Shown: positions 16,716 through 60,523 of the stretch, in pieces | How positions within the stretch are numbered: the first letter of the stretch is position 1 | How the letters are laid out: every line of letters starts with the position of its first letter | Source: Lepidodermella squamata | Taxonomy: Eukaryota > Animalia > Gastrotricha | NCBI GenBank assembly: GCA_047495785.1 | Contig: JBLDXI010000055.1 | Location: 1,302,001-1,366,000 of the forward strand | Length of the DNA stretch: 64,000 nt | Direction of reading: 5' to 3' | Notes under the pieces: generated by a model | Databases searched by the model: none | What the model was told of the DNA's origin: nothing | Seen by the model: only the letters and a program-made list of their open reading frames with translations | Position numbers and translations under genes: made by a program

Positions 16716-17321
16716 ATGTTCAAGGCTGCCGTTATTTGCGCTGTTCTCGCCTGCGCCAACGCTCAACTATGGGGCAACAATTGGGGCAACAACGCCGGCT
16801 GGGGCTCGCTTGGTAATGCTGGTGGGTTCGGCAACTGGGGCAGTGCCGGCTACGGTAATGCTGGTGCTGGCAACGTTTTCGGTGCTAACAACGCCGCCTC
16901 AGCTGCCGGAAGCAAATTCGCCAACGGTGCCGTAGCTAATGGAGCTGCTCGCAACACGGCCAATGGCTACATCAACAGCGGATCCTACTCGCGTGACGCA
17001 TCCGTCCTGGCCGCCAGTGAGAACACCCGTGCTGCTGCCGGCAGTGCTGGAGGCAGCTACAACTCAGGAGCTTCGTATGGCGGTGCCGTCGGAAGCAATG
17101 GCGCCGCTGGCAATTGGGCTGGAAATAATGCTGTTGGTGGCGCGAGCAATGGCTACAACAACTGGGGCAACGCGGCCAACGCTAACCTCGGTGGCTGGAA
17201 CGGCTACGCCAACGGTGGCTGGAACAATGGCTTCGGTAACAACGGCGGCTGGGGTAACGGCCTTGGCTGGGGCAATGGCTTGGGCTGGAACGGCGGCTGG
17301 CGCCAGGGCCTCCTCGGTTAG
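16716..17321 (+). CDS. Secreted Gly/Asn/Trp-rich protein (GWGN repeats), paralog of 15264
   Basis: Signal MFKAAVICAVLACANA then QL; shared core YSRDASVLAAS..GGAVGSNGAAG vs YARDSSVVALS..GGAAGSNGAQG. Confidence 0.85.
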   Translation: MFKAAVICAVLACANAQLWGNNWGNNAGWGSLGNAGGFGNWGSAGYGNAGAGNVFGANNAASAAGSKFANGAVANGAARNTANGYINSGSYSRDASVLAASENTRAAAGSAGGSYNSGASYGGAVGSNGAAGNWAGNNAVGGASNGYNNWGNAANANLGGWNGYANGGWNNGFGNNGGWGNGLGWGNGLGWNGGWRQGLLG

Positions 17322-17567
17322 ACTGCGAGAGAGATAATCCTTCTTTATCCTGCCCTCTTCAACACAACTTCACCAGCAGTTTTCTATAAATAAGGATGCA
17401 CGTATCCTCTTAACACAAAAGGCAACGCCATAAAATGTAAAAAAAAGTGATATGAAAAAGCATACTGCCCTCGTTGATTTTTTCGACTGAAAAAAATCGC
17501 ACTTCCATCTTGTTTTCAAAAATGCACAAATAAATCTTTGGCAACTCATAAGTACTTGGCTTTTGTT

Positions 17568-29384: not shown

Positions 29385-29495
29385 AAAGAAATCGATTTTG
29401 TACTTTCAACAAAAATAAGACTGAAAGGAGATTGAAATAACCCATTACGTTATTTTTTGAAGAATTTATTTTGACTAGATATTATACCCAGCATG

Positions 29496-29501
29496 CATGT
29501 A
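29496..29501. repeat. Left target-site duplication CATGTA
   Basis: Identical hexamer at 48232-48237. Confidence 0.95.
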
Positions 29502-29575
29502 AGTAGTAAGGGGGGGGTCTCCAGCAACGGTCAAATTTTCAAATATTTTCCCACGGTCGGAGAAATGAATCATAA
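29502..29575 (+). repeat. Left terminal inverted repeat (74-bp core)
   Basis: Reverse complement of 48158-48231 with 2 mismatches. Confidence 0.95.
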
Positions 29576-29580
29576 TGATT

Positions 29581-29792
29581 ATGTCAAGGTCGTTTGAGAA
29601 AGTTTTGGCGCGAAAATTTAAAAATAAATGTCAAGGTCGTTGGTAATTTTTGGCGCGAAAATGAAAATTTGAAAATAAATGTCAAGGTCGTTGGTAATTT
29701 TTGGCGCGAAAATGAAAATTTGATAATAAATGTCAAGGTCGTTGGTAATTTTTGGCGCGAAAATGAAAATTGAATAATAAATATCAAGGTTG
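29581..29792 (+). repeat. Subterminal tandem repeat, ~4 copies of a 47-51-bp unit
   Basis: ATGTCAAGGTCG starts at 29581, 29628, 29679 and 29730 (variant at 29781); each unit contains TTTTGGCGCGAAAA. Confidence 0.9.
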
Positions 29793-30004
29793 TTTGTTGA
29801 AAAATGTTCCCACGGTCATGTGACTGCGGCAGGTTTGGTAAATGCAGTTGTATGAATGAATGAATGAATGAATGAATGAATGAATGAATGAGAGAATGAA
29901 CGATTGAGACACTCCTGCAGGTCGTGTTTTATTGCAAATTTTATTACGATAGTAGTAGTAATAGTAGTAGTAGTAGTAGTAGCAGCAGCAACCACAATCT
30001 TTTA

Positions 30005-30961
30005 TCATGTTCCCACGTGTTCCCACGGAAACATGGTTGCAATATCAGGTGTAACAATGTCTCGAAGGAACGATGACGACGACATAGACCGTTGGCGCGG
30101 CGGACGCGTCGGATTTTGATAGCGAGCATTAGTCATCGCCGTGACCGATTTACCAATGCTCGACTTTGCGAATAGATGCATGGGTGCAGAGGTCTTTGAC
30201 AAGAGTTCCGCAACTGGTTGAAACAGCTGCTTTGCGGAGACTGATAATTTGCTTGGAGCTTTTGTTAAGACTTCAACCAGAGTATCGACCGGGATCTCAG
30301 CCAAGGAACTGTCATCCCGAATAAAAGTGATTGTTGAGGAGGACGATGATCCATCCAATGTGAAGGTAGCATCAGGTGACAAATTCGAACGCAGATGATT
30401 CAAAATAGAGGATGCTTTTTCAAGTTGATCAGACTTTAAACTACCAAAGCGAGCATTGAGGTAATTTGTTGTAGCGTCCCCATTAGTAACCGTGCCTGCT
30501 ACAGCAGTATCACTACCACCGGCTACCGGATCAGAAGCAGCAGCAGCAGCCGCCGCGGTAGGCGTAGTGCCAGTAACAGGTGTGGGAGCAGGAGGTCGAG
30601 GTGACTCTTTCGTAGGTGCTTGATCACTCTGGTTGTTAACTCTGGTATTTTGGAACAGTCGAAAGTTTTGCTTGAGCCGTTCAAGTTCCCCGAACAGGTA
30701 GTTGTACTCTCGTGCACTCTGCGAGTTAACATTTGGTTGCTGTAGTATATCAGTCATTTGATTTTCCAAATCTTCCACCTTGGAATAGGCGGGCCCATCA
30801 AACAAACGCTGCCTCGTCATTGCTCTTCGTTGTAGTGCATCTTTATCACAAACACCTTCTGCGCGCGTAGTAACTGGCGTCGTCGTCGTCGTCACATTTC
30901 CATTACCATCTGCCGCCAAGTCTTGCATGAGGACCAACTTGCGACTATGCTTCTCAGACAT
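30005..30961 (-). CDS. Conserved Polinton protein of unknown function (PW/PZ class)
   Basis: Starts MSEKHSRKLVLM; LENQMTDIL..Y..L and KASSILNHL patterns and terminal W resemble uncharacterised Polinton ORFs; overlaps the upstream ORF stop. Confidence 0.6.
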   Translation of the reverse strand: MSEKHSRKLVLMQDLAADGNGNVTTTTTPVTTRAEGVCDKDALQRRAMTRQRLFDGPAYSKVEDLENQMTDILQQPNVNSQSAREYNYLFGELERLKQNFRLFQNTRVNNQSDQAPTKESPRPPAPTPVTGTTPTAAAAAAASDPVAGGSDTAVAGTVTNGDATTNYLNARFGSLKSDQLEKASSILNHLRSNLSPDATFTLDGSSSSSTITFIRDDSSLAEIPVDTLVEVLTKAPSKLSVSAKQLFQPVAELLSKTSAPMHLFAKSSIGKSVTAMTNARYQNPTRPPRQRSMSSSSFLRDIVTPDIATMFPWEHVGT

Positions 30962-31337
30962 CACGATTAGTGCTGCTTTTACGAAGTGCCAAAATACCGT
31001 CAATAACTGAAGGTAGAACGCTACTAGCAGCTGAAATAAGTAGGGGAATGAAAGCACCACTGCCGTTTTGAACTAGCAATTGGCGGTTGATGTCTGGTGA
31101 TTTAAACTTGGAAATGCGCTCGATAGTTGCTTTATATGTACGTAGCTTCTTAACTGTCTTCGAGTCCGCTGACAGGTTATGACGTAGCAAATTTAGACAG
31201 ATTTCGGTTAGCAGAACAACTATACGAGTTGGCGCCAACCCGAGCAACCGTCGCCGCTGGCTAGGTGGTGCCTGGGTAAGCAGCCGTAGGAAGTCAAGAG
31301 TTCGTTGCCGCTTTGACGTTTGCGCCTTTGGCGCCAT
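30954..31337 (-). CDS. Small basic Polinton protein with a Q-x-G-x-G motif and hydrophobic C-terminus
   Basis: LRLL..P..RR.LL..A..LLTEICLNLL..KKLRTYK..LLVQNGSGAFIPLLISAASSVL, a typical conserved Polinton small ORF. Confidence 0.7.
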   Translation of the reverse strand: MAPKAQTSKRQRTLDFLRLLTQAPPSQRRRLLGLAPTRIVVLLTEICLNLLRHNLSADSKTVKKLRTYKATIERISKFKSPDINRQLLVQNGSGAFIPLLISAASSVLPSVIDGILALRKSSTNRDV

Positions 31338-31520
31338 AATATTATTAATTAACAAACTGTCACTAGAAACGGTTAATATACTTAATCAAACAATACCTAT
31401 ATGACAACTAACGGTCCGACCTGTATAAAAGGTTGCCTGCGGAGAAGGGTGGAAATAGTCATAACTAACGCTTGCTTTACATTTTGGTAGTATATATCCT
31501 GAGATAACTTCTTTTATTCG

Positions 31521-32174
31521 ATGGAAACTACCACCACCACCACCATGGATACCCCGTCATCGCCAACAATCGATGGTCCATTGCTACCTCCACGTGGTCA
31601 TGCTGCTGCTGCTGCTGCCGGCTCAAATCGAAGCGGTTTGATTCCTGGTTGGAATGACCTCAGTCGATTTCAGCGAGTACACTACACCTTGGCCAGGCAG
31701 TCGATAACAAGCTGTAAAGAGCCCACCTTCATGATCTTGCGTCGAAATCATGATGATCACGTTCCAGATCTTGAGTTTTTCATTGGTCATGCAATCGAAG
31801 TGAACAAACTCTACTATACACGCAAGGGTTTGTATCTCTCAGCTCGAGAGCTGCGAATGATTTATGAAAGCATGCAGATCGAAGGCTCATGGGTTGACAA
31901 GATCAAGCAGGAGCTGAAACTACCGAGAGGGAAGATGATGTGCAATGGACCGAAACATCACATCGGAGGAATGTTTCACGCCAAGGTATTTCGTCCGAAC
32001 GGGTCACCCCGCACATATGTCGATGTCCGCCTTTTCCTGCCTGCTGCGGGTAATAACATCATTGGACAAGAAAATTCGCAGGAATTCTCGCAAGATGGTT
32101 TTTGTGCCTCAGATGCAGTCTTCATGGAACTGCAGCACATGATCTACTACATGCTCTCGAACCTGAACGAGTAG
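31521..32174 (+). CDS. Putative tandem PC4-like (Sub1) ssDNA-binding protein
   Basis: YTRKGLYLSARELRMI resembles PC4 P.KKGISL..EQW..L; a second repeat HIGGMFHAKV..TYVDVRLF..SQDGFCAS..FMELQ resembles IG..RYVSV..IDIREY..KGI.L. Confidence 0.55.
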   Translation: METTTTTTMDTPSSPTIDGPLLPPRGHAAAAAAGSNRSGLIPGWNDLSRFQRVHYTLARQSITSCKEPTFMILRRNHDDHVPDLEFFIGHAIEVNKLYYTRKGLYLSARELRMIYESMQIEGSWVDKIKQELKLPRGKMMCNGPKHHIGGMFHAKVFRPNGSPRTYVDVRLFLPAAGNNIIGQENSQEFSQDGFCASDAVFMELQHMIYYMLSNLNE

Positions 32175-32362
32175 AGAGAGAGAATTCGTTCTCGGCTCAA
32201 TGGACTAAACTGACACTGGACAATATATATAATCGCTTACTTAATCTACGTATGCTTAACATATACTGTAGTAGTAGTAGTATTCGTAGTAGTAGTAACA
32301 CAATAAACCGAACATAATCAAGAGTTTGATGTGTTTATTCCTACTGTAACACAGAGTCCTTT

Positions 32363-33164
32363 TTATATAGTCAGTGGTAGGTTCAAGCTGGGAACGTCTT
32401 CCACCTTTACAAAAACGTTGCCAGTTCGAGATCCGATAAAGTTTCGAAAACGGAGTAACGGCGGGCAAGATGATGTGTTATCTATTAAAAGATAACCAAA
32501 AGGCGCGCTCGTAGCAATGTCAAAGCTCTCTATATATTTTAATGATGTGAAGCGGTAATATTCAAATGAAATTTAAATTGTTAACCTTGCAAGAATCTCC
32601 AGTCTTTGGGTAAAATTCGACGAGCCAGGTGTCCGAACTGAGTCATGTCACAAGGTGAGCGAAAAACAATAATGTATCTCGCATTCAAGGTGACATCTCG
32701 GGAAAACTTTCCTCTAAAAATCATGGTTATAATATATTATTCATACAGCAGTAAACAAACCGAGGAAATAAATTATTTTGCGCCATTATTACTGAAATTT
32801 GGCTGTGATGCGAACCGCGGTAAAACAGTTCTGCAACTTGCTTCATATCCTTGGCATCGCAGTAATTATCATCGAATACCAGCAGCTTATGCCCAGGTCC
32901 CAGGTAATCAGCCTCGTGAAAGGTTGTTATGTCATCCCGATATTCGATCGGAATTCCACGCACTGCCCGAACTTGTTGACTGAGTTCGACATGACCTGGT
33001 TGAGCAATACCTCGAAACCAAACTACCCTATCGATAGGTCTATCGAATGAGCCAGGGTACAGCAAAATATCTTTGATTAGTGTTGATTTTCCACCCTGAC
33101 TAGGGCCAGAAATGATTATAGTACAAGGTGCCTGGAAAGCTGTGGTAAACGAAGTCATCGTCAT
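32363..33164 (-). CDS. A32/FtsK-like genome-packaging ATPase (2 introns: 32714-32760, 32530-32585; ~232 aa)
   Basis: Walker A GPSQGGKST, Walker B LLVFDD, RGSHH..SVI..QNNLFPR/GKFSRDVTLNARYII, AT..PFGYLLID; an in-frame upstream ATG exists at 33212. Confidence 0.93.
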
Positions 33165-33235
33165 ATAATCTTCCGTTATGGATTTATTAATATTATGTAT
33201 GGTAGGTAACATTTACAAGCAGCTCTTTTTATATA

Positions 33236-33727
33236 CTATGCAAAGTTGTCCTTAACAAAGCGTGCAACAAAAGCGTCATTTTCGGCTCTCGTATTCCAGC
33301 CATGATTAGTGATTAACGAAAGAATATTAGGTAGGGAAACACCGCGAGCTGACTGATGTAGGAATACCAGGCAATACAAACCACAGTAGGCACTGTCAAA
33401 CGGTTGAAGGCCGCGGTGATTGAATGATACGAGCTTCCTGCCACAATTCGCCATGTTACCGATGAAATGGTCCAGACGAACCGACCAAGATCCCGAATCC
33501 TGACCATAAGAGTCCATGAAGGTAATTGATGTTTCCGTTACATGTATGGCTATCCAATGAGTGCCTGCTGTCGAGCTTGGAGAGGCATTCACGATTAGGT
33601 AAAGAGGCTTAGTATGCATATCATAGTTTTCGTAATAATGAAGCATATCGCACGGAATTGTAGCGTAAACACCTTGATTGATAATAGGGTCGGAATGGAG
33701 CAAAGCATTCAGTTCCAGGGTGTTCAT
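33236..33727 (-). CDS. Adenain-like cysteine (maturation) protease, intronless
   Basis: GTHWIA, FMDSYG, LQ...SAYCGLYC (His-Asp-Cys with oxyanion Gln). Confidence 0.92.
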   Translation of the reverse strand: MNTLELNALLHSDPIINQGVYATIPCDMLHYYENYDMHTKPLYLIVNASPSSTAGTHWIAIHVTETSITFMDSYGQDSGSWSVRLDHFIGNMANCGRKLVSFNHRGLQPFDSAYCGLYCLVFLHQSARGVSLPNILSLITNHGWNTRAENDAFVARFVKDNFA

Positions 33728-33733
33728 GTTTTC

Positions 33734-35082
33734 TTAGAAGAAATTATGTAGGACTGTTCTGTTGGCCTGAATTTCTAGCGTCTTGTTTTTATAATACATT
33801 ACGGCAATCAAAGTCGTTGGAGAAGTCAGTTTCTTGCTGAAGAGAAGGTTGATCGCCATCTGTCCTGTCTGCGTCAAACGTCCATTAGGATCCGAATCCT
33901 GACTCAAGTCGAATGCCATGACAAAGCCACCACCTTTGACGAAATCATCCCGACTTATGTTGACACACTTTGAATTCGAAGTCGGAAATATGGTATCTTG
34001 CATGAGTTGGTAAACTCGGGCACAATCGTTAGCTTCGAAATCCATTGCAAGAGGTGTGCCACCAACAGCCTTTCCATCGATGGTAATTGTTATATTCTGA
34101 AGACCGAAATGTTGAAACCTGAAAGGGTTGGTGGCAGCTGAACCCTGAATACCTTCATCCTCGACCATGGCTTGCAATGGTAAAACAAGTTATATTAGAA
34201 TGGTCTGAAAAAAATGGGTTTTTTCTTTTTACCTAATACAATCTTTTCGGGAATCACTCCTAATACAACGTTGTTGAGGAAAATGGCCGTCATATTGGTA
34301 GGCAAATTGAATGGTTTAGTCACCGTATGAGTGAAACTGTAACGAGCCGGTGCTTCCAATAGCGCCTTTTCAAGTGCAATGGTGACCTCGGGAACAACCT
34401 CAACTCGTTTTACTAGCAAGACCGCCTCCAGAAGTTTGAACTCGTAATTTGCCAGATTATCAGACATAAGGAAAAACTCTGGCTTGTGTAGAGTCAGCTT
34501 AATTCGCACGCTTGTTTGTGGGATCAAATATCGTTCCTGATTGAAGAAATCGGTCGAAATTTTCCCCAGCAAAGAGATGACGGGTTTTTGTTCGAAATTC
34601 TTCACCAGCGCACGACGAGATTTGAACCCTGCATTTTCCTTCAGATTGTTGAACAACCCGGGGGTATCAGGGTACCAACCAACGTTGGTGAGCTTTGTTG
34701 ACTGGATATCTTGTGTTGCCGATAAGAAGTTTTCCATATATGCCTGGTAGCTATGGAGCGAAGAATTCTGCGTGATTAAGCATTCGTTGAGATAAATGTG
34801 ACAGTCCTCGAATAAGGAGTTCAACAGGTTATTTACGCCCGCGCAGCAAAATGTCTCTGTTGTGATGTCATCATTCGTCGGTGTTAGCGTAGCCTTGATT
34901 GATAAATAGGTGTGACTGAGGTCCGTGAAGGCTTCAGAAGCAGGGATAACAAATGTTATCTGCTGGGCTCCACTTATCGATGTTGTTGGAAAGCATTCAG
35001 TTACGTGCGTTCCTGTGATTTCATTTGTGAATGCAGGTGAGGCAAAAACAGCTAATTCGGCTCTAATAGCATGGTCAGACAT
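33734..35082 (-). CDS. Double-jelly-roll major capsid protein (PY); 1 intron 34171-34232; ~428 aa
   Basis: ELAVF..P, FTDLSHTYL, NNLLNSLF, DFFNQERYLIP, P.KIVL/AMV..NPFRFQHF, FDLSQD. Confidence 0.92.
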
Positions 35083-35158
35083 GATTGTAAAAACGTAAAG
35101 CACTTGGGCGATTACAATTTATTCAATTTCTGAAGATCCTTTATATACACACACTTAA

Positions 35159-35682
35159 TTAGAACAAAATGCGATCCGATTTTGGCTGCTTGAACAAAAC
35201 TGCACGCTTTTTTGGTTTCCCTTTGCGTTTGCGCTTTCCAGATCCATACTGAGAAGCTAAATGATTAACAGCTTCTTTGCCAACAGACTTGAGACCTTCC
35301 AATCCTCGGTTTTTTAAAACCTCAGCTACATTGAGATCTGCGCCACTCTGTTGACGCGTGGAGATATCTGAAGCTATGTTGGATGCCGCTGTAGCAGCAG
35401 TGTTTAAGAGCCTGGGTAGAAATGGAATCAGGCTATTTCGTACCCAACCTCGGAGCCAAGTACCTAATATTTTTTTTTGAAAAGAAAAAAAAACAACACA
35501 CGAGAAATTCCTAAGAATGTTGATGAAAACTAATCGCCGTTCTTACCCAAGCCATTACCGACTTGTGGCATCAAAACAATAGAGGGTCCAGTGAATGGTT
35601 GGATTGAAGAAGAAATCCCACGACCAGTCTGTTGTTGCTGAAACCAGTGCAGGTATGAATCGGAGCTAATAGGTTGTCGCAT
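35159..35682 (-). CDS. Polinton core/structural protein with three Q-x-G-x-G motifs; 1 intron 35464-35546; 146 aa; absent from the ORF track
   Basis: MRQPISSDSYLHWFQQQQTGRG..FTG..QVGNGL/GTWLRGWVRNSLIPFL..QYGSGKRKRKGKPKKR..ILF*. Confidence 0.85.
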
Positions 35683-35684
35683 TT

Positions 35685-36870
35685 TTAATGGCGAATGGGA
35701 CGTATGTGGATTGTCAGCATACTTTTCCCTTGTTTAAATACTAATTTCTCTCCTAAAATCATCAATTCGTAAAAATCACAGCTGACGATGAAGAAGAAAA
35801 TCACAGATACCTGAATCGAGGCACATCATGAAGCTCAGGGTGTCCAAAAATTGCGACTTGATTGGGTGATAGTACGGTGTTGAGCCAGCAAAACTGATCA
35901 GGTTGTACTTTTGCTTGTTGGATGCGCCAGAAGACGCGGGAAAAACTCGCAGCAAAGGGACACTTTTATCACCGCAAATAACCGGCTCAATGAGGTCCGT
36001 GTAGCAATAAATCAGCGGAGTGTGGAAATGAATTTGCGGAATGAATTCAGAGTAGAGCGGCTGATCTTTGCGCGTGGATCGATAAGCAACCTCAGCGGCC
36101 AATGAGACCTCATCTGCCAAACTCCTCTGATAAAGATTCAGGGTTAATTTACCATCTTCGTCGGTCTGATATGTAGGTTTTTTCCCATTTGCCATTACCA
36201 ACTTTTTGCCATCTTTTCCGGCCAGTATAAATCGCAATAAATGACTGAAGAGGCTCAAATATTCCCGTTCATGTCTCTGCTGCCAATCTTCATCCCCACT
36301 AGACTCTTCATCTGGAGGGACGTTAATTAAAACGACAGCCTTTCCAAAACCAAGAATCTGCCCCGCAAATTCGGGAAGGTACAACCCGAAGCCGGGTTTT
36401 AGGTCAAAGCGAATGCGATCTTTGCCTTCCTCATAGGCCATGTTGATTTCAGCCCATTCAGGCATAGCAGAGAGCAAGTCATTGATGTAATCTGTCATTG
36501 TCTCGTAGATGCGACCACCCACATGGCACTCGGCAAACTCCAAAGGGTTGTTGTAAGGTGATTCCTCAAGAGTGCCACGGTCCAACCAAGAGGTTTTGAA
36601 AACGAAAAAAGTGGACTTTTTCAGCGAAACAACCTGCGATGGAGTGCAAACCTTGAGGAGGGCAGCTTCATGAGAGCCAACGCTCCCTAAATCTATTATC
36701 GGAAGGCGTAACAAGATGCAACACGATACGAGTTTATTCAACTTACCAATAATATGTGGAAGCTTGACTTTGAACTCTGCAGCAGTATTTTGAGGATACA
36801 AATCTGATGACGCATGAGATGGTAGAACTAGAATCAAGTCCTTGCCGTAGTAGCTATTGACTGACAGCAT
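35685..36870 (-). CDS. Minor capsid/penton protein (PX); 2 introns (36693-36746, 35753-35810); ~357 aa
   Basis: LVLPSHASSDLYPQNTAAEFKVKLP..EAAL; IYCYTDLIEPVICGDKSVPLLR; spliced end DSG/EKLVFKQGKSMLTIHIR. Confidence 0.88.
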
Positions 36871-37126
36871 TATTAGGTAGAGTAGGTACGGTTGGATATA
36901 GTAGATGGTGGACAACCAAGGTCAAAAGCAGTAAAACCAGAGTAAGAGCCAGGGCGAGTACTTGCTTTGATCGCGATGCTAATGATGAAGAGGATCTAGG
37001 TACGCTTGATAAACTCGGTGGTTGAAAAGCAGTTGCGGTTCTCGTTGCAAGGAGAAAAGGTCGAAGTTGCTGAGATCGACGATCAGTTGACGCAAGTTCG
37101 GGATTTGAAATGGATGACATTACCAT
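36854..37126 (-). CDS. Small single-pass membrane protein (putative)
   Basis: 90-aa ATG ORF filling the integrase-penton gap, with VLALALTLVLLLLTLVV; TATATAAA about 30 bp upstream. Confidence 0.5.
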   Translation of the reverse strand: MVMSSISNPELASTDRRSQQLRPFLLATRTATAFQPPSLSSVPRSSSSLASRSKQVLALALTLVLLLLTLVVHHLLYPTVPTLPNNAVSQ

Positions 37127-37141
37127 AAGGTGCGTGCGAAA

Positions 37142-38303
37142 TCACTTCTCTTTATATAACTTCTGGAGCTCATGCGTGTAGAAAACACGCTTCAGTTGCC
37201 CGGATTTATCGTTGGGGTCAGATGATACGCGGTAAGCCACCGTCGAGTGATCATTTTGAGGAAGAATTTCAGTCACATGGTAGATTCTGTCGCTAAAAGT
37301 CGGGTGTTTAATTCGGTTTTTGAAAATTTTCCGCTGTTGCAAGATCCGAACGCGATCTCCCAAATTGAATTTCACTCGTATTTGGCGAATCGTCTTGAAA
37401 GCGTTTCGATGAGCGACTAAATTGTCTGGGTGATCCTCATAAACAGTCATGAAACCGGGTTGCGAAAGCGCCACATTCAATTCAGGGTTAAGGTTCCATA
37501 ACTCATCAGGGCTAAAGCCGGTTGTTGAATTTGGGCAGCTATTGATTGCATCCAAAATGTCGTCAAGTTTATCGATGAAATTTTTAGTGTTATTAGCCAT
37601 CATATATCGAACCAATCGCATTCGAAGGTTCTTGATAAATGTCTCGATTGCACCCACCTTCTTGGGAGAATTAGTGAGGTAAAACCTGGCGCCGAGATCA
37701 GAAAAGTACTTTTGAACTTTCTTATCGCGAAACTCGGATCCTAATTAGATCAGAGATTTTAAATGGAGATTAAGACACTGCGGCAGACAGATGTTTTCTC
37801 TTACCTTTGTCAGTAATTACCTGATTAGGGATCAAGTCGATTTCGGACATGATACCTTTAATCGCACCAAGCACTATAGCAGCTGTTTTATTTTTCAACA
37901 CCCTCAACCAAGTTTTGCGGGTAAAAAGGTCCTTTATGCATAGGACATACTTCTTTCTCGCGTTGAAAAATTGATATTCCTTCGTAATTTCCATTAGGTC
38001 CCCAGCAAAGGTGGAACCCTTAGCATGTACCGCAACTCGCCTATAAAGCTTACGATTGCGCGTAGAAGCTTGCCGGAAAAGGCTATAAGCCGGTTGAGCC
38101 GATAGCCATTCTCGAACTGTTTTATAGGTAATGACCCGATTATTTGGATACCTGGCCTTTGCAGCTTCGTACAGAATTTTAATAGATCGAAATGAACTGG
38201 GCAAGTTAGCAGTATAATATAATGGATGTAAAAGCTCATCAAGAGTTACATAGTCCTCGTCAGAAAGCATGGCGATATTATTATTATTATTGTACATCGC
38301 CAT
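37142..38303 (-). CDS. Retroviral-like (rve) DDE integrase; 1 intron 37741-37804; ~365 aa
   Basis: LYY..P.SF, VREWL..Q.AYSL, FAGDL, IKDLFTR, TDKG/SEF, AIETF, FNLGDRVRI, FY.HELQ. Confidence 0.93.
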
Positions 38304-38320
38304 GCTCACAATTCAGTCCG

Positions 38321-41300
38321 TTAGCCCTTAATATAACCAAAGGGTACAGTTTCGAATGTTTCATAATCTGAAATGAAGCGTTTCATAAACTTGAATCGGA
38401 GTGTTTTTATCACATCTTGAATTGCAACCTTTGCATAGGGATGGCACTGAAATCGGCGCCAAACCTGCTGTTCCAACTTCAAACAAGCCTCGTCTGCGTT
38501 CTTGTCAGCATTGATAGAGTGAAGAAGTCGCATGAAACTGTCGTAGTTGACTTGCCTCTCGAGGGCAGGTTTCAGCTGGAAGCCTTTCATTCGAATTGTA
38601 GTTTGCTAGTACAATAATTAGATTAAGAATTGTTCGTTTAGTCAGAAGTTCAGGAGAGCTTACTCCGTTAGATTGTTGTATCAGATACGTCTTCGGTGCC
38701 AAACCAATAAATCTGATAAAGGTACATTTAACCTTGGATTTTGAATTCGTTATATTCATTCCTTACTTTGTGATGTAATCTCCCGATCCGATCTCATCTT
38801 TCCAGTTACCTATAATAGTTTAAGAATATTCATTCCGATTTTTTTTCATTTTTATTCTGAACGGTTCAATATATTTACCCAGACAGTCGCCTGTGTGCAG
38901 TGGCACGGCTGATCCCGGCTTTTCCACGTAAATGCAAGAGTCTAAAACATGAATGAAAGATCGACTCATGGTTGAATTTAGGGCACTTTGTTTCGGAATT
39001 CTCACCAGTATCAGTATACAACAAGGTTGCCTGGAGCCGATGGAGCTGTTTGAAGAGGTAAATTCTAGCAGCAGAAGTAACCATGGCTGCTAGAACAATG
39101 TTAGACACAGGTAACGAGGGTTGGAACTCTTCCAATTCAGTTGAATGAGTGATGCGTAACCGTTCTTTGGTTAGCATCCCATCACCATCATCTTCGAAGT
39201 CTTCACTCGGAGGCAATACGGCAATGTCATGAATTTTCATGCCAGGTCTTCGAAGTAGTCTCAACAACTCTGATGGTGTGTCGACACATGAAACTTGAAT
39301 TCCATCGGGTCTAAGACCCAGTTTTCCATAAGCTAAAATAAAAAGAGAGAGAGATGGAAGGTTATCAGAATTATTAGCCAACTAAACAATTCCAACCAGT
39401 GTTTAACAGCAATTTCCCAAGGGATCTCAGTGCTGAATTGGGGTTCTTCAGCTTGTCTTTATCCATCTTAAACCCGTACAGTTTTGAGCAAGTCTCAATG
39501 TAGTCATCAATGTCAGGCCCATCATAGCCGCTGGATTCGAGCTTGATCTTTAGAGTGAACAGGTAGTTCAAACAAAAGGTTAAATAAGCTACTGATTACT
39601 CACTTTTAGCCCAGCGTAAATGAACGAACGAAATATCATGTTGGATTTCTTCGGGTAGTGGTATGTCTCTATGAAGAGATGCCCACGATATATCATAGGG
39701 AAGATACAATTAAATTAGGAAAATTTAGTACCATAGAAGCGGACGATTTCGCATTGACCATAATCGAGCGCGAGCCTCAATTCTGAAGTTGTCACGTAAG
39801 CATGAAAGCATCGTTCTTCGTCATTGTGTACACATGCGACTTGAGCTCCCAGTTCCATACATGAACGGCAAGATCCGAATTTCAGGCAGCCTCTGGACGT
39901 TCTATACCCTAGAATTGGCAGGTAGACATCACGCTTGATTCGTACGAGGCAACTAGTAAGTCCAAAGCTTGGATCTTCTTTCGAAAAGAAGTGTGCTCGC
40001 AGATCAATGTCATTGTTTCGCATTGCCAAAACCTTCGGGCATGGCTTGCCGTAAGGAAAAAATACTTCCTCGTATCCGTCTTGCACCGATCCAAGCTTCG
40101 AGCTCAGCACAGCCGGGTACAGACTATTCACATCCAAATACCTTATCTTCTCCCCTGGTAATGTCTCGTAATGTAGCCTGAAAACCTGTGAACAGTCATT
40201 ATGACTGTTACTTGGTGGTCTTGCATAAAAGTTATTATTATTATTATACCTCGGTGCGTCCACCTGTGTAAAATTGCCGTGGCATAGCTCTGTCAACAAT
40301 AGTGAGTGTTCGCTCGATTTCGCCTGCTAAAACAGTGTCTTCAGCCATGATTCGCTTGGCTTCGCATCCCCATGTGACAGTTAGCTGATAGCCGGCGTCA
40401 ATTACCGCCTGATCTTTCGCCAGTGTCTCACGATACAACTCACCAAAGGTGACATTCCGGACCGGGTGTAGCTTATTCGTGCAGTCAGGATAGCATCGCA
40501 AACAACCGTGCCAATGATCACCATGATATTGAAATACTTCGCGAATGTGACCATTTTCATCCAGAACAACCCCGTCTGGTTTGAATCGATAGAATTTTGA
40601 AGTTTCTGGCAACTTGATGGTGACCTCGCCATTCGAATTTCCAGCATGCAGAATCCGCTTGTTACTTTTTTGTGATAAAAATTCGAACCAAATCACCGAT
40701 TCGCGGGAATAATTCGGTCTGAGAGGTTTACAGAATTCCCATCATGTTCATCAAAAGTAAAAATAATAAAAATGTACCCCGCGGAATAACCTGTATTTGG
40801 TACCAGGTGTATAGGCAGATTTTTATCCAGATAAAGAGTTCTCCAAATCAAATTTGATAGTGAAGCAAGAGTTCGCGACTCTTCAAAAGCAGAAATTTTT
40901 AAGGTGGAGGTTCATTCAAAAGGGACTTTTTATTAGGTTTACCTGCGATAGGGTCGATACCGTCGTCACAAGACCCCGGTATGGTTGTTATTTCACGGAT
41001 CAGCTCACGGAATTTGACTACACATTGCTGTAGCAATACGACATCGCTATGACAGTACGCAACAGTTTCCGATTTCAGGCTGAAATTAGATGAAGAATTC
41101 CGTGCGATATGTAGTTTCAATTCATCGATTTTCGCAGATGACATTTTTGACGTGTCATAGTCATTCAGTGTTGGGGCGTTGATTACGTCTTTCAACCAGT
41201 TTTCGGGCGTCAACAGGTTGTAGGGAAAAAATTGCTTCCCAGTAATGTCTTCATTTTGTAGGTCAAATGCTTTGAAAAGCGCTGCCAAACTCGTCATTGT

Positions 41301-43411
41301 TAGCAAGTAAAAGTCGCGAAATACAATGCTGCCTTCAACTTTGATCTCCATGACACTATTGTTGTGGTGGATAGTTTCAAATTGGTATTCATGTCTCTGC
41401 AGCCAAGCCATGATGAACATGTGATCGAAGCTTGTTATAGTAATAGTAGGGAAATAAATCTCAAAACTAAAGTGTTTTTCGAAATTAAAATTACCGAGCT
41501 CCATTGTGAGACAACAGGAAGAGACCTCTGAACTGCTCCTGAAGAATGTACCGCATTAGCTTGTTAACGCAAGAATTGTCACTTCCGTCAGAGACAAATG
41601 AGTGAGTGCGTGGATCATCATTAGTACAATTTGCGGGACATTTGTCAGAGCTCGGTAGGAATTTGCAAGATTCGCAAAAGAAATTGAGACAAACAACTAC
41701 AGGTATCAGGGTGCCATCGTTGCCTCGAATTGTCTCGAAATCAAACAACGCAAGCAACCTCGGCTTTACTTTCCCAATCCTACCAGGTTGAATAACGCAC
41801 TCGTGCGGTGCAGACTCGTCGCGTGGAGGCAAATCACCTTTACAGACACGGCAGTTTCGAATTTCACCTAAAAGATTAAATTTCACTGAGCATGCTTCGA
41901 ATTGCGCAACCACGTACATTTGTGCTTTTTTCGAGCTTTCGCCGGCAACGTTCTTCCACATTTGCTGCACATGAAGAAAGAATCGCAGATTGATTTTCCA
42001 GTAGTTGGGTTCACCTTGACATGAGCTTCATAGCACTGCTTTCCATGGTAATATAGTCCGCAAGAGCCACGACATATTATGTCCCGCTCTCGACTGCTTT
42101 TACAATCTGCCCCAACGGTTTGGCACCTATTGCACTTTCGACTGCATTTATGCGCTACGGAATTTTTCTTATGGAGCATGAAGCAGTATGGGCACATGAT
42201 TTTTCCGCCTGATATGTTAGAAATACCAGTTAGGCCGACGTAGTGTCCGACACTTTCGAACGACCCTACGCCTCCTTCGACATGTGAAGCAATAGTTTGA
42301 CTACTGATAAAACCAATGTAAATTTTTCGCTCGTCAGCTATTTCAACAGTTGCCGGAGGATGAATTGCGACAACCTGTTTCGTTTTGAAGTTGTAAATAA
42401 TCCCTGAGAAAATTAAATTCTTGAATTAGGGTCGAAATAGTATTCAGGTACCAGAATTTACCACGATACGGTAGCCCTATTGTTTCAACAGCTTTTTTAA
42501 AATCCGCGATGCCATAGCGATCTTTATTTCCATCAATACCAGCAGTCTCCATCAGCTGCTTAGCCAATTGCCCTTCGTATTCGAATGCTACTGCTCGCTC
42601 TTGGATTGCCAATGGTGTTAATGCATCGCGATCTTTCGAATAATAGGGACGCAATAGTTCGAAATTTCCGTGACGTTCATGACCAGCCCTCGGCTCATTA
42701 AAATCACGGTAAGCTAGAGCGTGAACAATGGCTCTGAATAGGCACAAGCGATCGTCATTGTCTATGAACAGAACCGATCTGTGAGACAGTATAAAATCGA
42801 CCAATGTCTGCTCTAAACGTCGCTTTTTCTTCGGCTGACCAGCCCCTAGGGCTAGTTCGTCTTCTTCCAATGCACTAGTCTTGATTCTGAAGACAGAAAA
42901 CGTCCAACCTTTTTAATATTAAAAATAGTAATAATTATTTTATTTGAATTTTCTGATTTTTTTAAATTAATTAATTACCCCCTTCCATTGTTGCGCACAG
43001 CCTAGATTGTAAAACCGAGTTGGCCTGGTTTAGAATCAGAGCTCCGGATAATTCCTTTACTTCAATATAAGAGGTTAAGAATGGGGTGTGCAGGGCTTCG
43101 TGGTGGCATTCAACTCGAACGTGATCTCTTCAAATTAATAATATTATTATTAACAGATTGCAATAAATTTTCATGGAAATAAATGGAAATTACCGATCTG
43201 GAAAAGTTGCCTTAATTTGCTGAGCTACAGACTCAAAACTGAGCTGAATCTTGGTCAGAAGTGCGACGATTTGATGGCCACCTTCATCGTCATCGTCTTC
43301 GGTTTCCCATCCCAATCCAGATTGTAAGGCATCCAAGTCCGTGATGGAATACTTATGGACCTCAATTCCGAATAGGTAAGAATAACAGTGATAGCCGAGG
43401 TCAGTCAACAT
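38321..43411 (-). CDS. Protein-primed family B DNA polymerase with terminal-protein/vOTU-like N-terminus and VSR-like insert; 16 exons, ~1389 aa
   Basis: Spliced motifs VLQS, NDDRLCLFRAI..GHYV, FDFET, HNGAR/FD, YCHSDV, YTGGRTE/V, DVNSLYP, KLLLNT/AYGK, YTDT/DS, APKTY, MKGF. 5091 bp minus 921 bp of introns gives 4170 bp, in frame. Confidence 0.93.
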
Positions 43412-43498
43412 AACTAGAATTATATCGATGAAATTGGGTAAATTATTCTTTATGAGAGGCCTGCATTTTTAAATACTCACTCGGTGCTGCTGCTGCTG

Positions 43499-43512
43499 TT
43501 TTGGCGCGGAAA
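43499..43512. promoter_or_regulatory. E2F-consensus site at the pPolB 5' end, with CCAAT boxes at ~43615-43670
   Basis: TTTTGGCGCGGAAA; ATTGG at 43615 and CCAAT at 43641 and ~43666. Confidence 0.5.
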
Positions 43513-43846
43513 TTGTTACTATTTAAGTGTGTAGGAAAACTACCGGTTAAGAAGTAGTGTACGACTACTACTGCAAAAGAAACTATACTAGTAATGCTAT
43601 ACATCTCTGCGCTCATTGGTTGGTTAGCACCCCTCGCACACCAATCATATCCACGAGCCGTGAGTCCAATTTTATTATTCAATGAACACGCGCACTGAAA
43701 AAAAATCTGCATTCCATTCTCAAAATGAACTCAAAGATGGGAGTATAAAAGTCATGATTTATTTTATTTAAAAAAATGGAACTTCAAGTGTTCGACCAGG
43801 TTAAAGCGCGAAATTCTACATGATTCTTATTATTACAATTTTTCGA

Positions 43847-43847
<1 letters not shown>

Positions 43848-43893
<46 letters not shown>
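43848..43893. repeat. (AAT)n microsatellite
   Basis: About 15 AAT units; other simple repeats in the element include (TGAA)n at ~29853-29890, (TAG)n at ~29949-29980 and (TAT)n at ~45123-45150. Confidence 0.9.
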
Positions 43894-44289
43894 GCAAGCG
43901 CTATGTTTAAAAATTTTTCAAAGAAAGAGAGAGAGAGACATCTATTTACATGCCAGCATGCATATAGTAATAATAATAATAATAACAATCGCTATATACA
44001 AAAAATTCGAAGTCGAATTCATTATTACAGTGTGGGTGTGTGTGTGTCCTCGATAGATAGAGATAGAGATAGAGTGAGATAGAGATAATGTAATAAATAT
44101 ATTGCATATTTTGTATGCTATATTTACAAAAAACTTCGAACCGAGTGAAGTGACAGCTTTCAGGTGGAGCTATTAGTGTAAGTAAATTAAGCATATATTT
44201 TGTTACCGTGATATGAATATTCACCAAGGCGTGGGGCGACGTATCTCCTCTTTTTCCACATTGACTGCTTCTGACTGCTTCTGCTGCGA

Positions 44290-44817
44290 CTATTCTTGAT
44301 TTTCGTCCAAGGCTTCGGCCAAGACCTCGTCCAGAACGGCTCGCGCTGTTGCTGCCTGTTGGGCTGCTTGCTGCGCTGCTACCTGTTGCTGCGCTGCTAC
44401 CTGTTGGGCTGCTGCTTGTTGCTGAGCTACTGCTGCTGCTGCCTGCTGGGCTGCTGCGTGCTGTGTCCGGGCAGCTGGCTCTACCTGGCTAATCATATCG
44501 TTGAGCAACCATTTCAGGGCGCAGCTTCGTTCATTCATCTCAACCAGTATGACCTGTTGGCCGAGTAGTACCTCGATGGCGGGACTCATTGTGTGGGGTA
44601 TCATCATTCTAACGCGTAATAAATTAGATTAGCCGACAGAAAATTCGTCAAAAGCTTACCTATGTTCCTCAAGATACTTGAGGTCCCGTTTTACTATGTC
44701 CACCTCTCTGGACATTACTTGCTTAAAGGCTTGCAGCATATTTATTAAACGCTGTGCATCGCGAGCAGCAGCACACAGTTCGTTGTAGGTAGCAATAGGG
44801 TTATATTGCTGATCCAT
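44290..44817 (-). CDS. Small coiled-coil Gln/Ala-rich accessory protein; 1 intron 44609-44659; 158 aa
   Basis: MDQQYNPIATYNELC..LKYLEEH/RMMIPH..AAQQ repeats; a GTAAG..TAG intron restores the frame. Confidence 0.65.
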
Positions 44818-45118
44818 AACAAGTTATTCTATAGAATTATTCTATAAATGTGAAAACTATAATGTGTAACCTCAGTCCGATAATATTTCCTGCACCCAAG
44901 TTTATTATACGATTGATGACGGGTCCGCATCAATAATTATATATGTCAAACTCCACTTTGGCTGACAGGTAGTTAGGTAAAATGGTGACTTTTGGCTAGC
45001 ATTATTTCAGGTTGCTGCATATAAATGTCGAAATCCACTTTCCGCAACAGGCAGGATGGCAGGACAGTGATTTTGGAACCATAATTTAGGGAGGTATAAG
45101 TCTTCATTACTCGTGTTG

Positions 45119-45152
<34 letters not shown>

Positions 45153-45413
45153 GCTATTTATATTATATTTATTGAGATTGTCATTCATACATTAAGGTCT
45201 ATTCAATTCATGTTTTATGGTTGTTCTGGCTACTACCTACTACTACTACTACTACTAGTTATGATTGCCAAAATAATTGTGAGTGCGTGGTGTCCACAAG
45301 CTCCGCCCACCTCGCATGCTATTGGCTGTGCGCGATTATAATATATAGAGTGAGTACGAAGTAAAAATAAAAAAATTAAGGTGGATTTGTTTTAACACAA
45401 AAAAATTGAAATT

Positions 45414-45977
45414 TTATTTTGAATTCGCCAAAGCGATAACAAGAAATTTTTCCACAGCCATATTTTGCATTTCAGATTTGGGATCGGTTATCCCTGTAAT
45501 ACAAAATCGACCTGATGAAAACAAATTAATACTAACTTTCTGGTCCATAATATTTTCGATTCGCAAAGCAGGAAACCGCGTCAAGTCGAGCTTTACTCGA
45601 GTGCTAATTGAAGATAATTCATTCAGGAGAGTTGTATTGAAGCTAATAGTCGTTGGTAGTTGACCAGTAACGGTACAATTACGAATTCGAAAGTTTTGAA
45701 ATTTGATCGAGTTATTGTTGCTCTGCAGCTGAAGTTTTCTCGCTAACCGCCGCCCGCATTTCAGAGCCAATTCTGGTTTCTTGGCTATAACAACAATGTT
45801 GCCTGTTTTGAAAATCAAGGCGGAATAGTATTTTTCCTTGATGATAACGGCATTCCTGAATCTCGGTGATATTTCTGCCATTCTGAAATACGTGATTATT
45901 TTACGCAGCTCGAGTTCAACACCGCCCAGGTTAAAAGTAGCAACAGTATTTCTGATAAAAACGTCGATATCAAACAT
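45414..45977 (-). CDS. TATA-binding protein (TBP)-like protein, intronless, 187 aa
   Basis: Two TBP repeats: IRNTVATFNLG..PRF.NAVI..SALIFKTGNIVV..A..RRLARKLQ..KFQNFRIRNCT..RFPAL..INLFSSGRFCITG. Confidence 0.85.
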   Translation of the reverse strand: MFDIDVFIRNTVATFNLGGVELELRKIITYFRMAEISPRFRNAVIIKEKYYSALIFKTGNIVVIAKKPELALKCGRRLARKLQLQSNNNSIKFQNFRIRNCTVTGQLPTTISFNTTLLNELSSISTRVKLDLTRFPALRIENIMDQKVSINLFSSGRFCITGITDPKSEMQNMAVEKFLVIALANSK

Positions 45978-46130
45978 TATTTGAGAACATTGCAAAATGA
46001 ATAGGAAAAAAATTAAAACTGGGTGGCGCGCGCGCCTTTTATTCTGAAAAAAATTTCAAGTCTTGACCACCGTTATTATTCTGCTTCATCATCATCATCA
46101 TCTGGAATTATACCGGCCGCCGCCGCCGCA

Positions 46131-46922
46131 TCAGCGCCATCTTTTTATTTTTGATGTTGTCTTGGTCGATTCAGCCTGACGCAAAATGCGATATTTCTCC
46201 CACTCGCACGTATGAACACGGTCGATGGGGCGTTGACCATGCAAATCGGCGTGATATACGTTTGCACGCATGTTGACCAGGTACAAAACCGAACTGGTTG
46301 AGCCAGTGGCTGCGGCTTCTAATAGCGGTGAAAGTAGCCATCTCGGCGACACGAAATTGATTTCAGCCCCGGCTTCTACCATTCGAGATAGCGAGCGGCT
46401 TGTCAGGTTTGGATTAGCCGCTGCCACTAGCAAGAGCGACGCTCGATCGTTTTCTCGCATGTAGATAGACCAGAATGGTTCAAGGGCACACTTCATATCC
46501 GGTTCGTGGTCTGAAATAATGATAATAATAATAATAATTTTATTAATTTTTCATTTATTTAATAATAACTGACGCATGAATAAGGAGACGATGTAATCTG
46601 TCACGTGATAATTTTGAAGAATTTCGAAGAGACTTTTCGTCGCGCCGAATTTAAAAGCTGCATATTCGACCCAATATGGTGTGAGGCTATCACCTGTGGG
46701 TCTATTCGCGAAAACAATCCGACTCGTTATAGCCGTAAAGCGGTTATCGTTAGGCCTTAGGTACCACTCTATTCGCTTCTCCAGGTGATATTTAACTACA
46801 TACCTCCCGGTTTCGAAATAAGCTGTGCACAAATGGCCGAGCTCATGATCATTATGAATACACGATAAAATGTTGTCAATAATATGGTGAAAATTCCAAG
46901 GGTGTTTGAAAATTTCCTCCAT
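46131..46922 (-). CDS. Ankyrin-repeat protein with an F-box-like N-terminus; 1 intron 46511-46573; 242 aa
   Basis: N-terminal P..FHHIIDNILSCI..EL..LC; ankyrin repeats MVEAGAEIN, SPLLEAAATG..SVLYLVNMRANV..DLHGQRPID. Confidence 0.7.
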
Positions 46923-47340
46923 TTCTTCGAATTATTAGCAATTCGCAATATTATAACAAGAATCGCATATATTACATGTCACGAAAGTAAAGCGCGCGAA
47001 ACCTGGCGGTTTTTTTTTATTCCCAGGGTTTGGTGAGCGGTGATCGTTTTGATGAGCGGTGACGTGTGTTGACGTGCCGCTCCTCTCTACCCGCGCTTAT
47101 AGTGCATTAACGCCAGTGTATAATGGAACTTTGACAGCAGCAGGAGCATTACAAATTATTGGTGTGCTTTCGCGCCATCTAAGTAACTTCATGCACTAAC
47201 AACACTTTGCAGTTGCAATACCTATATTACTCCTGCAAATTTTCGCAATTTATTACCAACCTCTTGATACTGTACTAGTACTACTACTACTTTGCGAGCA
47301 TTCAGCACGATCATCATCATCATCATCATTATTAGTATCG

Positions 47341-47637
47341 ATGGATTCTCGAGCCAGTGGTTTTCGAAGCCCTCAAGGACAACAGCAGCAACAACAACAA
47401 CAGCCATCTCCTGCGGTTGTAACTGTCCATCCTCAACAGCAGCAGCAGCGGAATCAACTGCGCGATTTATCACTTGCCATTGACAATATTGGATTCCGAA
47501 TTGATCAGCTCGAGCGTAAAGTCGACTCGTTGATGATTTTACAACGCGAAACTGCGGAAGGCTTACTAATGCTGGTGCAAGTGATTGAGCGTGTTCGGCT
47601 GATTCGAAGCATTTTAAATGCCCCCATGTTAGATTAA
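47341..47637 (+). CDS. Small polyQ/coiled-coil accessory protein (putative)
   Basis: 98-aa ATG ORF with heptad LSLAIDNIGFRIDQLERKVDSL; AATAAA at ~47719. Confidence 0.5.
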   Translation: MDSRASGFRSPQGQQQQQQQQPSPAVVTVHPQQQQQRNQLRDLSLAIDNIGFRIDQLERKVDSLMILQRETAEGLLMLVQVIERVRLIRSILNAPMLD

Positions 47638-48157
47638 TGCGATGATTTTCACACAATTCGCAAGGAGTGATTTGTGAGGCGCAAGGAGTGAGTGAGTGAG
47701 TGAGTGTTTTAATTGCGCAATAAAATTTCAATGCAAGGTGTGTATGTAATTTATTTATTAATCAAAAATCGATTTGATGTTTATTACGATAGACAACGCA
47801 GCCAGCGAAATTGACATTTATTTTTGGGATTTTATTTTATTTTTTTTTTCCTACTGAATCGTGGTATTTGTTTACTTTATTTTGACTTTTCGGAAGTTTC
47901 CATTTTGCGAGCATCGATCCTGACCGTGGGAAAATCGCATCAAACGACCTATAGAATTTCATTATTTCCAATCAGCGTGATTTCCAATAATCGATAAGTA
48001 CCGAAAATCGATAATCGATAATCAATCAATAATGATCGGTCCTGCCGCTGTCACGTGACCGTGGGAAAACGACCTTGACATTTATTTCAAATTTTTGGCG
48101 CCAAAACTTTACACATGACCTTGACATTTATTTTTCCATCATTTTCCATATTTATTC

Positions 48158-48231
48158 TTATGATTCATTTCTCCGACCGTGGGAAAATATTTGAATTTTT
48201 GACCGTTGCTGGAGACCCCCCCCTTACTACT
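48158..48231 (-). repeat. Right terminal inverted repeat (74-bp core; degenerate extension to ~48040)
   Basis: Reverse complement of 29502-29575; CCCACGGTCA.GTGAC.GCGGCAGG is shared at 29809-29833 and ~48040-48065. Confidence 0.95.
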
Positions 48232-48237
48232 CATGTA
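48232..48237. repeat. Right target-site duplication CATGTA
   Basis: Identical to 29496-29501. Confidence 0.95.
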
Positions 48238-60445: not shown

Positions 60446-60523
60446 TGCTAAGTTCCAACAAGCAACATTCAAACTATTGAACCCTCAGACAATAGTTTGA
60501 ATGTTGCTTGTTGGAACTTAGCA
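60446..60523. repeat. Perfect hairpin, 34-bp arms, 10-nt loop
   Basis: TGCTAAGTTCCAACAAGCAACATTCAAACTATTG at 60446-60479 and its reverse complement at 60490-60523. Confidence 0.85.

Follow-up and report, generated by a model that had tools for sequence, protein, structure and literature searches.

A Polinton in an animal genome carries an intact, divergent two-repeat TATA-binding protein gene

The window analysed here, a stretch of 64,000 nucleotides of animal DNA, contains an 18.7 kb Polinton, and the minus strand of this element encodes at 45414–45977 a real, intact and divergent TATA-binding protein (TBP) of two repeats. The element appears to be intron-rich and recently active, and its TBP seems to have been kept for a long time while its surface was remodelled. 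The explanation that we favour, and to which we give about an even chance, is that this element-encoded, early TBP acts on the element's own TATA promoters, helping host RNA polymerase II.

The reading frame of the TBP gene stays open for 187 codons, from ATG to TAA, with no stop inside. A first-pass annotation had claimed two TBP repeats and suggested a search with Pfam profile PF00352, which bore the claim out with two matching stretches (E 5.2e-16; 58.7 bits against a cutoff of 22.9). The best PDB sequence matches were the yeast, human and plant TBPs (E 1e-9 to 3e-7), with yeast as the best. An AlphaFold2 model reached a mean pLDDT of 94.7 with a 90-sequence alignment that consisted mostly of cellular TBPs, toward which the model leans; folded from the single sequence, without the alignment, the protein gave a pLDDT of 36.8. 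Foldseek matched the model to eukaryotic TBPs with TM scores of 0.83–0.86 at 26–28% identity, and to viral models with TM scores of up to 0.78 at 7–17% identity, below cellular TBP. The saddle of two TBP repeats that defines the family was thus recovered by Pfam, the model and Foldseek alike. The protein carries a net charge of +14, and its gene has the lowest GC content (0.383) among the 15 coding stretches compared. As the annotation had stated, there is no N-terminal extension, the gene is intronless and it lies inside the terminal repeats, 2.2 kb from the right one. The absence of introns is uninformative, because several other short element genes are uninterrupted too; the protease, the PZ-like gene and the last open reading frame (ORF) are likewise open from start to stop.

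The Polinton is bounded by terminal inverted repeats and a 6-bp target-site duplication, and an empty site was found. Its gene content comprises the protein-primed polymerase, the rve-type integrase, the packaging ATPase and the adenain-type protease (Table 1). The capsid, minor capsid, core-protein and PZ labels are those that we presume from Polinton gene order; for the putative major capsid gene, the candidate for the double jelly-roll capsid protein of Polintons, neither a Pfam nor a homologue match was obtained. The label PC4-like, carried over from the earlier reading, was not confirmed: the 217-aa ORF had no match in Pfam or PDB and only sub-threshold leads in Atlas. The Gln-rich and Ala/Gln-rich ORFs near the TBP gene are candidates for transcription cofactors. 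On either side of the element lies the 3' end of a host gene, one for a nuclear receptor and the other for a tryptophan hydroxylase. Since the hydroxylase piece is about 50% identical to all animal relatives listed, the host appears to be a fast-evolving animal without a representative among the matches. On the host side, inverted repeats occur at 1879–2990, with nested 45–54-nt arms, and at 60446–60523, as a perfect 34-nt hairpin with a 10-nt loop; they are possibly small transposons. Two neighbouring, secreted-looking host ORFs rich in Gly, Ala and Asn (15264–17337), perhaps structural proteins, matched no Pfam family.

Table 1. Features of the Polinton in window coordinates; L001 is a second Polinton described in the text
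Feature	Position	Strand	Evidence or remark
Left target-site duplication, CATGTA	29496–29501
Left terminal inverted repeat, starts AGTAGT	29502–29575	+	74 nt, 97% to right arm
Subterminal 51-nt repeats	29599–29797		8 TTTSSCGC (E2F-type) matches
PZ-like ORF (127 aa) and last ORF (318 aa)	30005–31337	-	31% to L001 counterpart, E 1.6e-9
TATAAAAG	31424		before PC4-like ORF
217-aa ORF, earlier label PC4-like	31521–32174	+	Atlas leads 0.81–0.84, sub-threshold
Packaging ATPase, three pieces	32363–33212	-	28–38% to L001 Pox_A32 ATPase, E 2e-10
TATATAAA	33235		before packaging ATPase gene
Adenain-type cysteine protease	33236–33727	-	PF00770 above cutoff (E 1.3e-4); similar to L001 protease
Putative major capsid gene, in pieces	33734–35082	-	position only
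TATAAAAA	33793		before adenain-type protease gene
TATATAAA	35147		before putative major capsid gene
Putative core protein, two pieces	35159–35682	-
TATTTAAA	35740		before putative core protein gene
Small hydrophobic ORF and putative minor capsid gene	35776–37126	-	E 0.001 to L001 counterpart
Retroviral-type integrase, two pieces	37142–38303	-	rve E 0.0013, sub-cutoff; 23–28% to L001 integrase, E 4e-17
TATATAAA	37158		before small ORF/minor capsid gene
Protein-primed DNA polymerase B, many pieces, short GT-AG gaps	38321–43411	-	PF03175 E 4.4e-17 on one piece
TATTTAAA	-63 of predicted polymerase start		E2F-type site at -96
Two-piece ORF with Ala/Gln repeats	44290–44817	-	without family
AATAAA, likely poly(A) signal	45413–45418	-	overlaps TBP stop codon
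TBP gene, 187 aa, two repeats, intronless	45414–45977	-	ORF, Pfam, PDB match, model
GGCGCGCGCGCC palindrome	46025–46036		59 nt upstream of TBP start; E2F-like core, not full TTTSSCGC
Two adjacent open frames, weakly ankyrin-like (sub-cutoff)	46131–46922	-	no TATA box; E2F-type site 79 nt upstream
Gln-rich coiled-coil-like ORF, 98 aa	47341–47637	+	without known family
Related copy of subterminal repeats	48068–48135		2 TTTSSCGC matches
Right terminal inverted repeat	48158–48231	-	74 nt, 97% to left arm
Right target-site duplication, CATGTA	48232–48237

The copies of the element were surveyed in a public run (X1) that holds 90% of the window's words and is possibly the source of the window, so that it is not independent. 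One contig of depth 78 joins position 29495 to 48232 across six shared letters, which is the empty site; the insertion is therefore polymorphic or recent. The bins of the element had depths mostly of 340–586 (2 of 28 were lower), and the TBP gene was recovered in one 758-nt contig of depth 364 with no differences. Depth in this run does not equal copy number; the pattern fits several near-identical copies, all with the TBP gene. Over 30500–38500 of the window, the run also contains at least two diverged sister Polinton families with the same gene order, represented by contigs about 80% identical (depth 64–162) over the ATPase, protease and capsid region. With a likeness threshold of 80%, the TBP gene was covered in X1 by the element's own contig only, and the sister families may still carry a TBP.

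Within 32363–43411, the polymerase, integrase, ATPase, core and capsid candidates are split into pieces. Frame arithmetic placed a frame-keeping, AT-rich GT-AG gap of 47–83 nt between most of the 14 adjacent pairs; two pairs had none, and the ankyrin-like pair and the second ATPase pair were unconvincing. The uninterrupted integrase and ATPase of L001 align in blocks that are contiguous across the gaps (153/152; 134/136; 174/175), and the host hydroxylase gene has gaps of matching size and ends. Judging by these alignments and frames, the gaps in the core genes are likely spliceosomal introns. Maverick core genes of C. plicata are intronless in the part of 10.1101/2022.07.12.499685 consulted, and excerpts of PMC11957031 describe Polinton-like elements of dinoflagellates whose introns derive from introners. 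Core genes divided by introns suggest an element bound to the host nucleus, of a kind that surveys based on ORFs would overlook.

High divergence from cellular TBP, another claim of the first-pass annotation, is confirmed. A full scan of 1.84 billion protein representatives returned 200 matches, mostly 27–39% identical and none close, and the element TBP is about 30% identical to every TBP found, a set without the host's own TBP. No close relative appeared in a word-index protein search (0 of 76 candidates), in viral contigs (0 of 16 stretches) or in metagenome contigs (0 of 257), nor was an exact match found in a collection of 15 billion entries. Searches of viral contigs with three other short TBPs (P0085, P0131, P0021), a piece of the polymerase and the L001 ATPase yielded no locus. 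Across trees, the end branch of the element TBP measured 2.06–4.04 changes per site, and under the mixture model no placement was starred.

P0131, a short divergent match, shares the second-repeat words FPALR and SINxF with the element TBP; it is the one among about 12 short divergent TBP clusters whose genomic context was seen. Its DNA was located in two overlapping metagenome contigs (L001) with the gene order protease, putative minor capsid, A32-type ATPase, PZ-like, NADAR, PAZ, integrase and TBP, and the L001 core proteins are 23–38% identical to those of the window element. By this gene content, L001 is a second, distant Polinton with a TBP, here adjoining the integrase and placed differently from that of the window element. 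A TBP in a Polinton is thus not a one-off. The stand-alone PAZ domain gene (1833–2165 of L001; E 6.6e-8) and the NADAR gene (3757–4167; E 1.1e-38) are possible counter-silencing and repair cargo.

Kinship between the two Polinton TBPs was assessed with trees and with rare residues. In 40-row trees, they were sisters with support of 98/81 (LG+G4) and 93/59 (mixture), under a long-branch warning. A quick mixture tree placed both within an open group of five, and a 155-row tree, built after 20 of 175 proteins had been dropped as partial, repetitive or non-TBP, left both unplaced and was flagged for long-branch attraction. Outside the P0131 cluster (4 of 154 sequences), which has all five second-repeat residues selected for comparison, no sequence has more than two; the five were selected after P0131 had been seen. 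Over all 95 rare sites, P0131 shares 9 and the other long branches 12, 10, 10, 9 and 9. These comparisons suggest common descent of the two proteins; convergence is possible too. Eleven further TBPs of 169–189 aa (P0021, P0028, P0053, P0059, P0077, P0085, P0093, P0098, P0118, P0128 and P0139) also sit on long branches and come from short contigs, and some of them may be element-borne as well.

We consider that the element TBP derived long ago from a eukaryotic TBP-family gene and is probably not a recent capture. Because the ORF is intact, identity is about 30%, the branch is long and both the fold-critical residues and the fold are kept, long selection at the protein level is the simplest reading. 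The fast evolution of host proteins seen in the hydroxylase piece, the intronless gene and a forced clade with TRF2-type sequences that was not rejected (p-AU 0.35) would fit a young, neutral retrocopy of a host TBP or TRF2 that was itself unusually divergent. Free trees do not form that clade, and the element protein keeps Phe and Pro residues that the TRF2-type sequences in the set replace, among them the intercalating Phe, unlike P0047, which we take to be of the TRF2 type. Animal TBP cores are highly conserved, and a related-looking TBP occurs in another Polinton; a retrocopy is thus highly improbable.

The surface of the protein was compared residue by residue in a MAFFT alignment with 89 other TBPs, the yeast sequence coming from the PDB match; substitutions are given in what we take to be yeast TBP numbering. 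All six motifs named in the annotation (PRF, LIF, RFP, NLF, RNT and RNC) are present. Both Asn are retained as claimed, N10 and N100 falling in the canonical columns (Asn in 81 and 86 of the 89 other TBPs). Among the four intercalating Phe, F56, F135 and F153 stand in register; F40, of PRF, lies one column before the canonical first Phe, and R41 occupies the Phe column, on which phmmer, BLASTP and MAFFT agree. Also kept are N69, V71, T73, L114, F116, G119, V122, N159, F190, P191, F207, S209, G210, T215 and G216, together with the basic helix-2 residues R76, R77 and R80. The DNA face has turned from hydrophobic to polar at V161T, I194R, V203S and L205N, phosphate-contact Lys/Arg are changed at R196E, K120N and K218T, and V213C is altered too. 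Two losses had been overlooked in the earlier reading: the first-repeat Thr-Gly (yeast T124/G125) has become Ile and a gap, and the TFIIB loop YEPEL has become LDLTR (E186D, P187L, E188T, L189R). At the two TFIIB-binding acids, the protein has D131 and T133 where 71 and 77 of the 89 others have Glu, so that the canonical acid pair is lacking. The L001 TBP shares polar substitutions at three TATA-specificity positions and a weakened TFIIB loop, and the first loop acid is Asp in both Polinton proteins. According to the portion of PMC1636458 consulted, positions 194, 203 and 205 relax or alter specificity in TBPm3. The sections of PMC7221094 consulted identify the two loop acids as the TFIIB contact, with human E284R/E286R cutting transcription, and attribute to the patch on helix 2 the contacts with TFIIA, TAF1, Brf1, Mot1 and NC2. 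They report both surfaces as diverged in viral TBPs, the patch as lost in giant-virus TBPs, and viral TBPs with altered TFIIB acids as usually accompanied by a viral TFIIB; by Pfam, none was found among the 32 element ORFs scanned. The element TBP thus combines herpes-like surface changes on a bare core with the patch that giant-virus TBPs lose.

An eroded TFIIB loop beside an intact basic helix 2, with no element TFIIB and with the partners that PMC7221094 assigns to the patch, is also what a decoy or repressor would present. Such a protein would sit on TATA boxes without good TFIIB recruitment, or its basic helix would titrate regulators of host TBP (Mot1/BTAF1, NC2, the TAF1 N-terminal domain). 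The effect would be lower expression of host or early genes, or more host TBP available to the element. We rate this main rival as somewhat unlikely: the first loop acid is still an Asp in both Polinton TBPs, KSHV ORF24 activates without the TFIIB acids (PMC12529657, as far as its text was available), and a repressor would also act on the genes of the element itself, which have TATA boxes. The partly kept DNA face, the eroded loop and the high positive charge might instead point to a protein that bends DNA at the AT-rich element ends during replication, integration or packaging, outside transcription. This is improbable, given that neither TATWTAAA nor TATAWAWR occurs in the terminal region at either end and the boxes stand at gene starts.

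The promoter motifs bear on what the protein would bind. Seven TATWTAAA sites were counted in the element, and five of them lie on the same strand 15–110 nt upstream of a predicted start, serving 5 of 15 predicted starts (polymerase, small ORF/minor capsid, core, capsid and ATPase); shuffles gave a mean of 0.22 and reached the observed value in 0 of 2000. The looser TATWWAAR precedes 7 of 15 starts, adding the protease and the PC4-like ORF (shuffle mean 0.74; 0 of 2000). The first motif was chosen on the window element itself, and the start codons are predicted. In L001, TATWTAAA precedes 3 of 9 starts (shuffle mean 0.40; 7 of 2000) and TATWWAAR, also at 3 of 9, is not enriched (127 of 2000). 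The comparison covered two TBP-bearing Polintons, shuffles and the host flank. The TBP gene has no TATA box in either Polinton, in the window element within 150 nt upstream of its start. The window has 34 E2F-type TTTSSCGC words where 14 would be expected, divided equally between the element (17, of which 10 are subterminal) and the host flanks (17). Within the element, they are concentrated in the subterminal repeats and before two genes, the ankyrin-like one and the polymerase gene. E2F-type words without a box precede the ankyrin-like gene and the TBP gene; the polymerase gene has both, and the structural genes have a box only. A sixth minus-strand TATWTAAA (32362–32369) has no long ORF directly below it. 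Between it and 31337, a GTAAG near 32240 resembles a donor, and a TTTCTAG that resembles an acceptor comes shortly before the PZ-like start; a transcript from this box with an intron holding the antisense PC4-like gene is speculative.

The element boxes are canonical, being TATATAAA, TATTTAAA or TATAAAA. Two of the seven upstream boxes, at 43475 and 35740, are TATTTAAA and match TATTWAA, one of them before the polymerase gene; the rest are of the TATA type. TATATAA followed by G is, in the part of PMC1636458 consulted, the sequence that wild-type yeast TBP selected most often. Since they are canonical, the boxes do not need the element TBP, and with one of them before the polymerase gene, they are no clean marker of late genes. 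Host TBP might then read the boxes while the element keeps its TBP for a host-side or occasional benefit, like the cargo that Mavericks are known to carry (10.1101/2022.07.12.499685). Its low GC content agrees with such a role, and so does its location, which is unlike that in L001: it lies outside the core block, in a right arm that looks variable. The very long branch with an intact fold and the presence of a TBP in a second distant, possibly sister, Polinton speak against it, and we regard cargo as unlikely.

The annotation had proposed an early/late cascade on the basis of upstream TATA motifs and E2F sites. Both kinds of motif are indeed there, and the anatomy is what a three-step cascade would look like; the boxes are ordinary, however, and the one before the polymerase gene does not fit a clean division into early and late. 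In our preferred reading, action of the element TBP on the element's own promoters, the order of expression would run from genes with E2F-type words and no TATA box, through E2F plus TATA, to TATA only. The Polinton TBP would likely be made early and likely bind the TATA boxes before the polymerase, packaging, protease and putative capsid genes, its retained Phe, Asn and Pro suggesting DNA binding. Once bound, it would help host RNA polymerase II transcribe these genes, an activity that the TBPs of herpesviruses and giant viruses suggest by analogy. With an eroded TFIIB loop and an intact basic helix 2, it would recruit the polymerase less strongly than host TBP or through another partner. For activation, we count the polar DNA face and the lost TFIIB acids, which parallel KSHV ORF24 as described in the consulted part of PMC12529657. 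Against it count the out-of-register F40, the lost T124/G125, the changed phosphate-contact Lys/Arg and the lost second TFIIB acid, and host TBP could explain the boxes, which are canonical and have counterparts in 8 TATWTAAA sites in 45 kb of host flank.

Compared with known systems, the protein shares with the eukaryotic TBP core the two-repeat saddle, both Asn, three Phe in register, the Pro after the third Phe and basic helix 2. It differs in being encoded by a mobile element, in its identity of 26–31%, and in the missing N-terminal extension, shifted first Phe, lost T124/G125, polar specificity positions and eroded TFIIB loop. With the beta- and gamma-herpesvirus vTBPs, it has in common the viral type of encoding, the polar DNA face, the lost TFIIB acids and the two TATTWAA-matching boxes. 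ORF24, in the part of PMC12529657 consulted, is a large protein with a Pol II-binding N-terminal domain, five partner proteins and a non-canonical box. The element TBP, unlike it, consists of the 187-aa core alone, no partner was identified for it, and canonical TATA accounts for most of the boxes; its structural similarity to herpes proteins is low (rank 46 in the fold search). Membership in the herpesvirus vTBP system was rejected, as the N-terminal domain is missing, no vTA partner was found among the 32 ORFs scanned and only two of the seven boxes, one of them before the polymerase gene, are of the TATTWAA type that marks late promoters there. Giant-virus (Nucleocytoviricota) TBPs are likewise compact with diverged TFIIB contacts, and the nearest Atlas feature clusters of the element TBP are 50–59% viral. 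In the consulted sections of PMC7221094, giant-virus TBPs are mostly partnered by a viral TFIIB and no longer have the basic patch, unlike the element TBP, which in the fold search is nearer cellular TBP than viral models. The element TBP may work like a viral TBP.

Among Polinton relatives, figure legends in 10.1101/697771 and PMC8502044 list a TBP in maps of MELD (adintovirus-like) viruses, which resemble the present case as midsize Polinton-related elements with a TBP homologue; in the material consulted, it is named in the legends only, for non-animal datasets. One supplementary file of PMC8502044 did not contain it, and a term search of the available text of 10.1101/2023.08.22.554363 and 10.1101/2022.07.12.499685 gave no mention. 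To call the gene undescribed, as the annotation had done, was therefore too strong. The literature searched, mostly without subscription papers, contained no study of Polinton promoters or of a Polinton TBP beyond these legends. The window element shares with animal Polintons/Mavericks the terminal repeats starting with AGT, the 6-bp target duplication, the polymerase, integrase, ATPase and protease, and differs from them in carrying a TBP and in core genes split by short host-type GT-AG gaps.

A bolder proposal, which we hold as doubtful, is that a lineage of animal Polintons has a viral transcription switch smaller than any known. Its bare TBP, with a DNA-reading face re-engineered to be polar and a TFIIB loop that is weakened, would be passed on with the element among distant hosts and would steer host RNA polymerase II non-canonically toward the promoters of the element, much as the larger herpesvirus vTBP does. 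With a single-domain factor of 187 aa and a few candidate promoters, the timing of Polinton gene expression, and whether these elements go through a viral cycle, becomes a testable question. The answer would also show how far the specificity and TFIIB surfaces of TBP can drift and still work.
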